Positions 24,333-40,263 of a DNA stretch of 64,000 bases are shown piece after piece. The notes under the pieces are model-generated. The model worked only from the letters and a program-made list of their open reading frames with translations, was not told where the DNA came from and did no database searches. The position numbers and the translations under genes were made by a program. Position 1 is the first letter of the stretch. Every line of letters starts with the position of its first letter. Source of the stretch: a virus; IMG/VR virus record IMGVR_UViG_3300009494_000372; one strand, written 5' to 3'.

Positions 24333-25473
24333 GTCGCGGGGCATGTTTCAGAGAGACATGCACTGTAACCTGGCGGCTCGTGAACAAGAGATCGTGCTTG
24401 AGGCTGGTCGCGGGGCATGTTTCAGAGAGACATGCACTGTAACCAGGGCGATGTGAGTCTATACGAACCGATCTATTGTCGCGGGGCATGTTTCAGAGAG
24501 ACATGCACTGTAACATCAGAAATCATCGATACCTGAAAAGCAGCAGGTAGAGGTCGCGGGGCATGTTTCAGAGGGACATGCACTGTAACTATAGTGCAAA
24601 GTTTGATTCCAAAACAGATTTGGATGGTGTCGCGGGGCATGTTTCAGAGAGACATGCACTGTAACGATTGAATGACCTATGCAGATGAAGCTCCCAAGGG
24701 TCGCGGGGCATGTTTCAGAGAGACATGCACTGTAACACAGGGCACACGGGTCAAACATAAGCGATACGCATTGTCGCGGGGCATGTTTCAGAGAGACATG
24801 CACTGTAACTTGTGACAAAATCGATTAGAATGTTATTTTAGCATAGTCGCGGGGCATGTTTCAGAGAGACATGCACTGTAACCTCTGCACTGCTTGCGGT
24901 TATGCGTTCCTCCAATCCGGGTCGCGGGGCATGTTTCAGAGAGACATGCGCTGTAACGAACGCCAGTGAGCTGTATATGGCTCCCGGGTGACGTCGCGGG
25001 GCATGTTTCAGAGAGACATGCACTGTAACTGCCTGCATATTCTGATTTGGTTGGATACATCGCCGAGTCGCGGGGCATGTTTCAGAGGGACATGCGCTGT
25101 AACGTTAAAGGCTATCGATAAAACAGCTCCTGCAACGTAATGTCGCGGGGCATGTTTCAGATAGACATGCGCTGTAACGGCGGAGTCATGATCAGGCGTT
25201 GATGATCATCCATCTCAAGTCGCTGGCATGTTTCAGAGGGACATGCACTGTAACTTCCCAGGTTTATTTCATGCATGGTTTTTCACATAGGGTCGCGGGG
25301 CATGTTTCAGAGAGACATGCGCTGTAACTATGCGATCACACAGAATTAAATGCAATTGGAATCTGGGTAGCGGGGCATGTTTCAGAGAGACATGCACTGT
25401 AACTCTACAATGATCTCATTACCCTTGTGACGTATAGTCGCGGGGCATGTTTCAGAGGGACATGCGATGTAAC
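24333..25473 (+). CRISPR. CRISPR array: 16 repeats of 37 nt (GTCGCGGGGCATGTTTCAGAGAGACATGCACTGTAAC), 15 spacers of 33-40 nt
   Basis: Repeats at 24333, 24407, 24478, 24553, 24629, 24700, 24773, 24846, 24921, 24993, 25067, 25142, 25219, 25292, 25367 and 25437; degeneracy increases rightwards; partial repeat at 25492-25503. Confidence 0.97.
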
Positions 25474-25892
25474 GATAACTTACAGATGGATATGCGCTGT
25501 AACCATGGGGACGGTATCTGGAATCCGGGTGGATTATTGGTGAAAATCGAGGAAGATTATGAACATAATGGATAATGGCAGGGTTGATGCGATATTAGGC
25601 AGGTTGCAAGAGCAACTCGATAAGGATCCCAAAGAGCTCGAGCTGGTGCTCGACATCATTGAGGAGGTAATCTAAGTGAAATTCACGCCACCACAGACCC
25701 TCAAGCCAGAGGATGTACCGGACGTTTTCGGTGGTGATGAATTCACCATCAACGTATCAAAGGTCAAAGACTCGTTCACGGATTTCCTGAACATGGCAGA
25801 GTTCCTGAAAACAACTACCCTGACCTGCAAGACATGCAGCGAATTCCCATGCCACCGCAGCCAGGATCCGGACCAGAAGATCGGGTTCTGCT

Positions 25893-26243
25893 ATGAGGTG
25901 GAATCGGATGAGTAAGACAACCATTCCGAAATACTCATACGTGATCATAGTTGCACAGTTTGTTATTGGGGCTGCCACTATTGTGTTTCTAATTCTCGAC
26001 GAGTTCAGACTCTGGGCGTACCTGTACACGCTGTTCATACTAATAACTGGCATACAATTCTACCGGCTCCGGCGGGCACGCAATCATCTGGAGCGGGAGT
26101 ATATACTACAGATCCGGAATGCAATTGCAGAATATCAGAATAGGGAGCTGACCCTACACGAGTCACAACCCACTATAGAAGATGATCTTGAAGGTCTGCG
26201 AGAGGATATTAAGAGACATAGGCTGGCGAAAGATGATGTTTGA
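25893..26243 (+). CDS. Small two-TM membrane protein
   Basis: Two hydrophobic helices followed by a coiled coil. Confidence 0.45.
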   Translation: MRWNRMSKTTIPKYSYVIIVAQFVIGAATIVFLILDEFRLWAYLYTLFILITGIQFYRLRRARNHLEREYILQIRNAIAEYQNRELTLHESQPTIEDDLEGLREDIKRHRLAKDDV

Positions 26244-26262
26244 CTGGAAAATCGTGATCGCT

Positions 26263-27589
26263 TGCCTGCGATGTGTCGATATGCATCTAAAAAAGACACA
26301 ATCACCGCAGGCGAAAGGTTTTTAACCTTATTGATTAAAAAGATTATTGTCGATATGCAGGAAATAGTCAGAGCGTATAAGGCAGAGTTAAAGCTCAACA
26401 ACAAGCAGACCACCGATTGCACAAACCACATCAACGCGGCTCGGTTCGCGTGGAATTGGGGTCTGGCACGCCGGATTGAAGCATACAAAGAGCAGGGCGT
26501 ATCGTTGAATGCCATAAGTCTGCACAGAGAGCTTAACAGTCTCAAAAAAACAGAGCTGTCATGGCTGTACGGCGTCAGTAAATGCGCACCACAAGAAGCG
26601 TTGAGAGACCTGGATAAGGCATACACTAACTTTTTCGATCATAGAGCAAGATACCCACGATTTAAAACGAAAAAAGGGAAGCGAAGTAAACGAACATTCC
26701 GTTTAACCGGTGCTATTAAAGTATTCACAGATTCTATTCAGTTGCCACGTCTCGGGCGATTGCGACTGAAAGAGCGTGATTATCTACCATCCGACAAACA
26801 CATCCTATCGGCAACCGTATCCGAGACAGCAGGACACTGGTTTGTCTCAGTACAGGTGAAAGAGGCTGTTGAATTTCCATCTAACAACGGAGAGATCGCT
26901 GGAGTCGATTTAGGGATCAAGACGATGGCTTACGTTTCAGATGGCACAACCTTCGAGAGTCCGAAAGCATTGAAACGATATGAGCGGAAACTAAAACGTG
27001 CTCAACGAAAAGTTTCAAGGAGAGTGAAAGGTAGCAACAACCGGATAAAAGCCGTAAAAGAATTGCAAAGAATCCACAAACGGATAAGAGACATTAGAAC
27101 AGATGCTATCCACAAAACAACGAACCATCTGGCAAAAACCAAGTCAGTAATAGTGCTCGAAGACCTTAACGTAAAAGGGATGATGAAAAATCATTGTCTC
27201 GCAAAAGTGATAGCAGACGTCGGGCTGTATGAATTTCGCAGGCAGATGGAATACAAGTGTCCGCTATACGGGTCAGAATTGGTCTTCGCTGATCGATTCT
27301 TCCCATCAAGTAAGATGTGTTCGCGGTGCGGACACATCAAAACAGACCTCACACTGTCACAACGGACGTTTATCTGCGATGAATGCGGATTCATGATAGA
27401 CAGAGATCACAATGCAAGTCTTAACTTGAGACAGGTGGCTGTCAGTTTGACGGACACCTTAAAAACGCCTGTTGGAGAAGGAAGCTCTGGCTTGCTCGAT
27501 ATTGGAGCAAGTGAAACTTTCTTTGATGAATCAGGAAATAAACACTATTTGGGTATAGGTGTCCTGAATGGTTAAGTTTTATATAACGG
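26263..27589 (+). mobile_element. Non-autonomous tnpB-only IS element, copy 2
   Basis: Near-duplicate of 3721-5047; ends in ...ATAACGG. Confidence 0.75.
26355..27575 (+). CDS. tnpB: TnpB RNA-guided endonuclease, RuvC intact
   Basis: GVDLG, VLEDL and DRDHNAS. Confidence 0.92.
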   Translation: MQEIVRAYKAELKLNNKQTTDCTNHINAARFAWNWGLARRIEAYKEQGVSLNAISLHRELNSLKKTELSWLYGVSKCAPQEALRDLDKAYTNFFDHRARYPRFKTKKGKRSKRTFRLTGAIKVFTDSIQLPRLGRLRLKERDYLPSDKHILSATVSETAGHWFVSVQVKEAVEFPSNNGEIAGVDLGIKTMAYVSDGTTFESPKALKRYERKLKRAQRKVSRRVKGSNNRIKAVKELQRIHKRIRDIRTDAIHKTTNHLAKTKSVIVLEDLNVKGMMKNHCLAKVIADVGLYEFRRQMEYKCPLYGSELVFADRFFPSSKMCSRCGHIKTDLTLSQRTFICDECGFMIDRDHNASLNLRQVAVSLTDTLKTPVGEGSSGLLDIGASETFFDESGNKHYLGIGVLNG

Positions 27590-38886: not shown

Positions 38887-39233
38887 AGCATCCCCTCGTT
38901 TACTGCAGCCTCGATAAGTCCAAGACCGATAAACCAGTCCCCTCTTTTGGTGTAAAGCACTGGTACGCTATCGAAATCAATCGGCAATGGATCAAAGATC
39001 AGCTCGCCATCATAATCTGTGACATCAATCACATCAACCTTAACCCCCCTATCAGATAGGAATCTCACGGTATCCCTGCAATCCGGGTCTTCAGGATCGA
39101 CAAATAACACGAAATCATAGATGAAAGGCACACCCCTATCATCAATAAAAGCCCTGGATGTTTTTGGGTGGGTTGACAATCCAGCAATCTTCGCATCAAT
39201 CTCATCCCTGATCTGACGCACGTCCATACCCAT
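38883..39233 (-). CDS. Glutaredoxin-like fold protein (no full CxxC)
   Basis: FVDPEDPDC..FLSDRGV..SVPVLY..IGL. Confidence 0.5.
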   Translation of the reverse strand: MGMDVRQIRDEIDAKIAGLSTHPKTSRAFIDDRGVPFIYDFVLFVDPEDPDCRDTVRFLSDRGVKVDVIDVTDYDGELIFDPLPIDFDSVPVLYTKRGDWFIGLGLIEAAVNEGML

Positions 39234-39266
39234 TAATCACTCGCCTGCAATATAAAACTATACCTC

Positions 39267-39496
39267 TGTCACAATCAGCACATTTATGTGACACGGTTTT
39301 GTGACAGTGCAGCGCACAAAAGATGTTTGATGCGCGTTGATCTGTCACAATCGACACCTTTATGTGACATGGGTTTGTGACAGATATCTGGATGGTTTTT
39401 TTAGATGGGCGTAACAGCGGTGACGACCATTCGCTGCCTTGAGCTGCGTAACAGTATCGGGCAGCAATGTTCTCACGGTTATAGGAGTTTGTGACA
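39267..39496. promoter_or_regulatory. Array of TGTCACA/TGTGACA boxes between divergent operons
   Basis: Boxes at 39267, 39287, 39300, 39343, 39363, 39376 and 39490; two 76-bp-period units. Confidence 0.6.
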
Positions 39497-40263
39497 TGGA
39501 AAACGAACAAACGCAACAATCAGCAAATGCTGTTACAAAAGAGACGAAGACCACCCGGCTCAATGTGACAGACATCGAATGGTTACAGGACGAGGCAGGC
39601 GAGGGCGAGTCACCTGCAGCTACACTTAGCAGGTTACGTGATGAGTTACTATCATCTCGTGAACAAGGGATCGTGCTTGAGGCTGCCATCAAGGAGTACG
39701 GCACCATGATATCGCAGCTCAATTCAGATCTCGAAACTCTCCGCTCAGGATCCCTGACCACCGCCCTCACACCTGCAGGTCAGTCTTCATTCAGCGACTT
39801 CGGCGGCGGTGCGATCAAAGACGTGATGGACGAGATCAAGGATGTCTGCGATGACGAGACCGTTTGCGTGAAAACGGCGTTGCACATGCTCGACATGAAG
39901 GCTGATGTCGTAGTCAAGCAGCTTGACCGGGACCATTCCCGGGAAGAGAAGGAGAAGGACCGTGATCACTCAAGTGGTGAGAAGGCGAAGGATCGCGAGC
40001 TCAAGCGGGATCTCGAAACGAGCAGGGCTGAGCATCAGAAGAACCTTGCGCTGATCAGGAGGGGCATTGTCAGGGATGAGGATCTGGAGGATGTTACCTT
40101 CCTCAACTCGATGGAAAAACGCAAGACTGCAGGAGAGAGACTCGCCGATATGAAGAATCGGGCACATCATGCTGCGAATGCCGAGGATGACGACTTTGAC
40201 GATCCGGGCGATAAAGGCATTGTCGAGGGTGAGGAGGGATTGGATGAACACCCCCCTGAATGA
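39496..40263 (+). CDS. Coiled-coil hypothetical protein containing the near-protospacer for CRISPR spacer 1
   Basis: GGAG RBS; N-terminal RHH-like segment; 39649-39685 matches spacer 1. Confidence 0.6.
   Translation: MENEQTQQSANAVTKETKTTRLNVTDIEWLQDEAGEGESPAATLSRLRDELLSSREQGIVLEAAIKEYGTMISQLNSDLETLRSGSLTTALTPAGQSSFSDFGGGAIKDVMDEIKDVCDDETVCVKTALHMLDMKADVVVKQLDRDHSREEKEKDRDHSSGEKAKDRELKRDLETSRAEHQKNLALIRRGIVRDEDLEDVTFLNSMEKRKTAGERLADMKNRAHHAANAEDDDFDDPGDKGIVEGEEGLDEHPPE

Follow-up and report, generated by a model that had tools for sequence, protein, structure and literature searches.

A miniature type V-like CRISPR system on a probable archaeal virus, with a newest spacer that most likely derives from a relative's core gene

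Introduction

Why should a mobile element carry a guide that almost, and not exactly, matches one of its own genes? The question is raised by a 64,000-nucleotide stretch of the virus record IMGVR_UViG_3300009494_000372 of IMG/VR (the whole of this stretch is called the window in what follows), in which a gene for a small Cas12f/TnpB-like effector, a long structured non-coding region and a CRISPR array are found side by side, while the first spacer of the array (spacer 1) nearly matches a core gene that lies 15 kb from the effector gene. An initial annotation of the window, made from the letters alone, proposed that the spacer had been taken from the orthologous gene of a close relative, that the protospacer-adjacent motif (PAM) is of the TTA/TTR type, and that divergence of the PAM-proximal seed keeps the carrier from targeting itself. 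The follow-up described here favours, with a probability of about 0.62, a virus-carried miniature type V-like system with a newest spacer taken from the core gene of a competing relative and with the carrier's own copy spared; the parts of this reading are of different strength and are taken up in turn.

The array and the self match of its newest spacer

The array occupies positions 24333-25473 on the + strand and consists of 16 repeats, each 37 nt long apart from one copy that has lost 1 nt, with 15 spacers of 33-39 nt between them. The repeat is predicted to fold into a hairpin and ends in ...AAC, immediately followed by the spacer. Spacer 1 (24370-24406, + strand) is leader-proximal, and hence the newest, because the variant repeats (R4, R9 and R11-R16) lie mainly in the array's right half, a truncated repeat (approx. 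25489-25503) bounds the array on that side, and the conserved leader/scaffold region and the effector gene lie on its left side.

Spacer 1 has the same sense as the coding strand of the target gene and agrees with positions 39649-39685 (+ strand) at 32 of 37 bases. The mismatches are at spacer positions 3, 4, 6, 7 and 20 (39651, 39652, 39654, 39655 and 39668, respectively), and the near-protospacer is preceded by GTTA (39645-39648, + strand), on what is the candidate PAM side. Read in frame, the spacer gives LAAREQEIVLEA and the self site LSSREQGIVLEA, which correspond to residues 52-63 of a 255-aa open reading frame (ORF). Thus the match, the positions of its mismatches, the flank, the in-frame reading and the rank of spacer 1 as the newest were all recovered as initially annotated. 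The analytic chance expectation for a match of at least 32/37, given 15 spacers, both strands and 64 kb, is approximately 1e-8. The other 14 spacers reach 19-23 bases in their best ungapped match to the window, 200 shuffles of spacer 1 reached at most 25, and no match in the window was found for any spacer besides spacer 1. The placement of four of the five mismatches within the first seven positions has P = 0.0025 if mismatches are placed at random.

The target gene and the origin of spacer 1

The target gene (39496-40263, + strand) encodes a 255-aa protein of unassigned function, for which Pfam, PHROG and the ESM Atlas gave no function assignment and a comparison with phages gave no match. 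The gene opens a long rightward run of small genes and adjoins a divergent junction. The protein has 44 homologs (alignment A2) and is the product of a syntenic core gene in related contigs of 74 kb and 87 kb (L007 and L009); a search of the target-gene profile against IMG/VR and metagenome contigs returned no confirmed loci.

The comparison that bears on the origin of the spacer is that of spacer 1 with the DNA of the orthologs from four related metagenomic elements. The L012 ortholog agrees with the spacer at 36/37 bases (mismatch at position 4), those of L009 and L011 at 34/37 (positions 4, 7 and 18, and positions 4, 6 and 18, respectively), that of L007 at 33/37 (positions 4, 6, 7 and 18) and the self copy, at 32/37, is the worst match of the five. 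Gene-wide identity to the self copy follows another order, being 85% for L007 (the nearest relative), 82% for L009 and 78% for L012. The diagnostic base is that at position 7, which is G in spacer 1, L011 and L012, and T in the self copy, L007 and L009. Because the T is common to the carrier and to its closest relative, the alignment points to a spacer foreign to the carrier lineage, most likely taken from a relative's ortholog. Among the lineages sampled, the L012 type is the nearest to the source, with one base different from the spacer, and the 5' end of an L012-type gene is also found on a contig from an independent sample. The initially proposed origin from a close relative thus gains from the orthologs, all four of which fit spacer 1 better than the carrier's own gene does, as would be expected of a virus-borne CRISPR array directed against relatives. 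The first 26-28 nt of spacers 2-6 remained unmatched in IMG/VR.

The protein also has a central segment, probably a coiled coil, that occurs as at least three to four unrelated variants among otherwise conserved orthologs (A2 columns 110-160, approx. 39640-39760). In the CRISPR-bearing relatives L001 and L003 the target segment is of a variant that bears no resemblance to spacer 1.

A 3.5-kb contig, L018, breaks off just after an effector gene 93% identical to that of the window, and it comes from the same assembly as L007 with a similar coverage (38.8 and 40.4, respectively). The contig is probably a piece of the 74-kb relative, the one with a 33/37 match to spacer 1 in its target ortholog. 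In this family assembly stops at the arrays, most of which are for that reason absent from public contigs.

Scaffold, guide orientation and PAM

Between the effector gene and the array there is a structured non-coding region of approx. 380 nt (23955-24332, + strand), a candidate scaffold resembling a trans-activating CRISPR RNA (tracrRNA) or omega-RNA together with the leader. A TTAATATA box comes before the region, which ends with a partial, repeat-like GCGCTGAAAC (24307-24316). Across elements with effectors 73-87% identical its mean column identity is 77%, and it is more conserved than the effector gene; its consensus fold contains 107 pairs, 13 of which show compensatory changes. It matches no Rfam family, and repeat-scaffold duplexes predicted with RNAduplex are inconsistent between relatives, so that no anti-repeat was established. 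The scaffold is a separable unit, because in the related locus L020 an 88-aa cysteine-rich ORF (2291-2557) has the effector gene on one side and the scaffold on the other.

In a sister clade, with effectors 35-57% identical to that of the window, the scaffold has a homolog (73% identity, E = 5.6e-26) that is followed by a mini-array of 2-4 repeats. Both are located upstream of the effector gene and on the opposite strand, divergent from it (L013:1889-2460, L014:5412-5990, L015:1248-1700 and L017:4430-5010, all on the - strand), the mini-array repeat ends in ...GCTGCAAC, and gene callers place a 148-aa ORF over the region. In the window, effector, scaffold and array are collinear on the + strand, and the scaffold-then-array order is kept where the effector is inverted. 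From the conservation of this order it follows that the guide RNA has the repeat handle first and the spacer second, which is the arrangement of all type V and TnpB systems. With the orientation of the guide fixed, spacer positions 1-7 are the PAM-proximal end, as initially assumed.

The PAM itself is less well defined. The GTTA flank is identical in all sequenced orthologs, and the longer flank GAGTTA is common to the self site and to L007, L009, L011 and L012. It corresponds to a conserved Glu-Leu codon pair, so that the flank of the sole known protospacer is constrained by coding. Other protospacers with flanks to compare with it were sought for the remaining 14 spacers and for approximately 65 spacers of related arrays in approx. 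200 kb of related DNA and in public collections, with none found; the spacers of the sister-clade mini-arrays matched none of the fetched loci, spacer 1 being the only one with a match, and the whole array gave no protospacer among GenBank phages and PLSDB plasmids. Thus, of the TTA/TTR motif initially proposed, the GTTA flank stands as a single observation, which would be compatible with the NTTR-type PAMs of Cas12f, and the motif as a candidate.

The distribution of the mismatches

Positions 4-7 of the protospacer fall in two codons, Thr/Ser/Ala and then Ser/Ala, both of them variable throughout the relatives, and positions 8-37 encode a conserved REQEIVLEA motif. As judged from the alignments, the clustering of mismatches at the PAM-proximal end is largely a property of the gene, and, since the same positions are mismatched in the non-self relatives, the clustering taken alone was rejected as evidence of self-avoidance.

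Other changes are found in the carrier only. They are a synonymous CTG-to-CTA change at position 3, a T at position 4 where the relatives have A, and a GAG-to-GGG change at position 20. The last results in Glu58Gly, at a residue that is Glu in every other ortholog having this segment. Every covering contig from three other samples has G and A at the positions corresponding to 39651-39652, and A at that corresponding to 39668, from which the self copy differs. Over 720 aligned columns, 3 of the 15 lineage-unique substitutions of the carrier fall inside the 37-nt protospacer, as compared with none of the 94 of the four relatives (Fisher p = 0.002; Poisson p = 0.043). This enrichment suggests that the protospacer of the carrier changed at an accelerated rate, which could reflect escape, be it from the carrier's own spacer or from like spacers of rivals; the carrier-unique changes hint at escape without proving it.

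The effector and its altered RuvC site

The effector gene (22668-23942, + strand) encodes a protein of 424 aa with RuvC-I Asp233, RuvC-II Glu321 and a CxxC...CxxC zinc finger. It matches PF07282 (Cas12f1-like TNB domain) with E = 4.7e-10, and with the profile of its family hits were obtained to solved structures of Cas12f and TnpB, the best being CnCas12f 8HR5 (E = 5.5e-32) over residues 217-416, that is, over the half containing RuvC and the zinc finger; in the N-terminal half no sequence similarity to Cas12f was detected. Type V systems are recognized by an array beside which one effector is encoded, with a split RuvC of the TnpB type, and such is the arrangement here, where the array starts 390 nt downstream of the effector gene. 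The linkage is repeated in L001, L003, L004 and L020. Both the length and the RuvC/TNB likeness place the protein within the range of Cas12f (400-700 aa).

The D-E-D triad of RuvC is incomplete. Asp233 and Glu321 are kept, and are invariant in alignments A1 and A4, while the third residue is Gly395. Accepted subtypes V-K and V-M are likewise without a complete RuvC triad. The RuvC-III motif reads HTGVNTAKN, versus (N)ADYNAARNIA in solved nucleases, and in the alignment the position falls on the catalytic motif of Cas12f as solved in 8HR5 and 8J1J. Among the 17 closest homologs (67-93% identical), which form a clade with long arrays, the residue is Gly in 16 and Ser in one; in the sister clade it is Asp in 8/8. 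On these sequence grounds, the effector is probably one that does not cleave DNA.

A VapBC-like pair, formed by a 79-aa ORF and a 161-aa PIN-domain protein, is encoded directly upstream of the effector gene (21880-22552, + strand). It is also found in the closest relatives (L003:2589-3261, L018:1412-2084, L019 and L020) and is absent from L001 and L004. In the sister clade a homolog of the target family (35% identity, E = 2e-16) follows the effector gene, directly or past one small ORF (L013:3972-4898, L014:7495-8421 and L017:6524-7069); this neighbourhood may reflect synteny at the divergent junction or a functional link.

Proposed mechanism and alternative explanations

The carrier would encode a self-contained miniature type V-like system made of the 424-aa effector, the scaffold RNA gene of approx. 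380 nt and the array, the newest spacer of which would have been captured from the ortholog of the core gene in a competing relative. The CRISPR RNA (crRNA) would pair with the template strand approx. 150 nt into the first ORF of the rival's long operon, beside the GTTA flank. In a superinfecting relative the effector would then bind and block transcription or replication; binding rather than cutting is the likely outcome because the canonical RuvC-III Asp has been lost across the effector clade. At the self site, the four mismatches within the PAM-proximal seven would prevent nucleation of the R-loop, as suggested by the seed dependence of Cas12f, TnpB and nuclease-dead Cas12f (dCas12f). For dCas12f, complementarity proximal to the transposon-adjacent motif (TAM) was found to be the most critical (PMC13472631). 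Should the effector bind the self site nonetheless, the loss of the RuvC-III Asp means that silencing, rather than cutting, would probably follow.

Several observations weigh against this mechanism or parts of it. A perfect 37/37 target was found in no collection, on searching JGI metagenome contigs and IMG/VR with exact and degenerate patterns. Position 4 is G in the spacer, T in the self copy and A in every sampled relative, so that effective targeting of the known relatives is unproven. Contigs from the source run contain the carrier allele and no rival allele, a weak point given that contigs drop rare variants. No cas1, cas2 or cas4 gene was seen among the ORFs scanned. With respect to the effector, changes in RuvC-III may correspond to a rearrangement of the active site instead of its inactivation (PMC10691335), and several clade-specific acidic residues are present in the effector clade. 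As to self-avoidance, positions 4, 6 and 7 are mismatched in the relatives as well as in the self copy, a pattern that needs no selection for self-avoidance, and carrier-unique changes are also found at 39639 and 39699, 10 and 14 nt beyond the protospacer; a small recombination patch fits as well as escape does. Finally, the viral identity of the carrier is based on a tail-protein match and features of a diversity-generating retroelement (DGR) only. The proposal that seed divergence prevents self-targeting therefore survives in part. In its favour remain the four mismatches within the PAM-proximal seven and the carrier-unique state of positions 3, 4 (as to the particular base) and 20; what it loses is the specificity of positions 4, 6 and 7, variable in all relatives, and the best outside target is itself mismatched at position 4.

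Some of the same facts would also be accounted for if spacer 1 were a historical footprint devoid of present function, left by a past encounter or by recombination of arrays, with mismatches that are ordinary divergence. The lack of a known perfect target, the lost catalytic residue, the adaptation genes not seen and the coincidence of the mismatches at positions 4-7 with naturally variable codons are all in line with this. We nevertheless consider it unlikely, for the elements keep effector, repeat and scaffold in strongly conserved form, and the arrays are long and differ fully in spacer content between relatives, which argues for ongoing turnover and selection. Related arrays are present in L001, L003 and L004, and those of the relatives compared have 15, at least 25 and at least 20 spacers, with none in common.

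That the spacer was instead acquired from the carrier's own gene, which later mutated at five positions, is less probable still. The changes at positions 3, 4 and 20, seen in the carrier only and including a Glu-to-Gly replacement in an otherwise invariant motif, and their enrichment inside the protospacer would be expected in such a case. The spacer, however, has G7 and a GCG at the second codon, and the self copy has T7 as do L007 and L009; since this T is common to the three, the spacer's sequence was most likely absent from the ancestor of the carrier lineage. Moreover, the L012 lineage, 78% identical over the gene, is one base from the spacer.

Least probable of all, and in our opinion very improbable, is autoregulation, in which the partial match would be functional and the effector would bind its own gene weakly to tune the downstream operon: a probably non-cutting effector, the RNA-guided transcription regulators known among nuclease-dead relatives of TnpB and Cas12f, and a site near the start of a long operon, within its first gene, with a guide that pairs with the template strand are in its favour, but natural regulators need PAM/TAM-proximal complementarity, whereas here the complementarity is PAM-distal (positions 8-37) with the seed broken at four positions, the relatives match the spacer better than the self copy does, none of some 80 spacers of four related arrays matches the target gene or anything else in the approx. 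200 kb of related DNA, so that no conserved self-guide is seen, and the CRISPR-bearing L001 and L003 have the non-matching variant of the target segment.

Capture from a competing relative, with the self site spared, is thus preferred. A bolder extension of it is that RNA-guided pressure drove the carrier's protospacer apart, and that a Cas12f-like effector that binds without cutting serves as a silencing weapon between archaeal viruses, pushing their core genes apart. It is prompted by the three lineage-unique changes, Glu58Gly among them, and by the several non-homologous central variants of the gene, and we regard it as tentative and, on balance, doubtful.

The carrier element and other features

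The carrier encodes a DGR reverse transcriptase with a tail-protein-like target, an MCM-like helicase, an integrase-like gene and three canonical TnpBs; the PHROG match of the tail protein has a value of 1.2e-56. No capsid or terminase gene was identified in the window, and approx. 20 kb of the contig lie outside it; an 18-kb stretch of the window had no match among phages. The carrier is from marine sediment, its relatives come from marine-sediment and cold-seep metagenomes, and the contig of one sister-clade locus was binned to an ANME-2 archaeon. The carrier is probably a virus of ANME-type archaea. It also has isoprenoid-lipid genes (56726-58668 and 61909-62805, - strand), those for a polyprenyl synthetase, an FAD-oxidoreductase-like protein and a UbiA prenyltransferase; an archaeal host would agree with their presence.

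As regards arrays, the window contains a further long one with a 36-nt period (44954-46620). The repeat pattern of the array discussed here had no match in GTDB genomes or IMG/VR. In L004 the array is split into two parts (5969-6517 and 8462-9396) by a papain-like peptidase / F5-F8 type C gene, a homolog of this peptidase being present in the window (47786-49273), and in the second of the two parts a block is duplicated, with spacers that are near-identical.

Comparison with known systems

The spacer-versus-relative pattern is already known from the mini-arrays of archaeal viruses (PMC6858448), where virus-borne spacers target close relatives and the orthologous locus of the carrier has point mutations (Medvedeva et al. 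2019, PMC6858448). With the Sulfolobus portogloboviruses SPV1 and SPV2 described there, the present element shares an array borne by the element, a spacer against a relative and point mutations at the carrier's locus that would be expected to prevent self-targeting; the spacer match known here runs in one direction, and the source-run contigs show the carrier allele alone. Unlike the SPV1/SPV2 mini-arrays, which have 1-2 spacers and borrow the Cas proteins of the host, the window has 15 spacers, its own scaffold and its own effector, which is type V-like with an altered RuvC.

Virus-encoded type V effectors without an adaptation module are also known, as Cas-phi (Cas12j) of huge phages and Cas12r of Thermus phages (bioRxiv 10.64898/2026.04.20.719267). 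These, however, retain an intact RuvC, are larger (approx. 700-800 aa in the case of Cas-phi) and belong to another family and to viruses of another host domain. Among solved proteins the closest likeness is to Cas12f of type V-F (CnCas12f 8HR5, AsCas12f 7WJU/8J12) in size, in the half with RuvC and the zinc finger, in the long structured RNA and in a repeat that ends in ...AAC and is followed by the spacer. The differences are the Gly in place of the RuvC-III Asp, the dissimilar N-terminal half and an anti-repeat duplex that is not established; the protein is of a separate family, at most 57% identical to its own sister clade and far less to the solved proteins.

Cas12m, Cas12k, TldR and dCas12f (PMC10691335; PMC13472631) have in common with the effector a TnpB/Cas12 scaffold with a damaged RuvC, of which binding or silencing is expected. 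They are truncated or have lost several active-site residues, whereas here the third residue only is changed, and they mostly regulate host genes or guide transposition, in contrast with the long variable arrays and the rival core-gene target found here. In particular, CRISPR-linked nuclease-dead Cas12f has been reported in bacteria, with host genes as targets (PMC13472631).

What is new in the present case is, therefore, the combination, on an archaeal-type element from seep sediment, of a long array, a long scaffold RNA and a 424-aa Cas12f-like effector that the element itself encodes and whose RuvC is altered. It supplies a concrete set of targets for an uncharacterized miniature type V system, namely a perfect site, a relative with one mismatch and a self site with five. 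If the effector were inert, or simply cut, this would be one more instance of viruses that carry spacers against their relatives, a known pattern. If instead it binds without cutting, the locus would be a case of CRISPR-based silencing between competing viruses, and also a natural data set on the number of seed mismatches that suffices for self-tolerance of a 424-aa effector.

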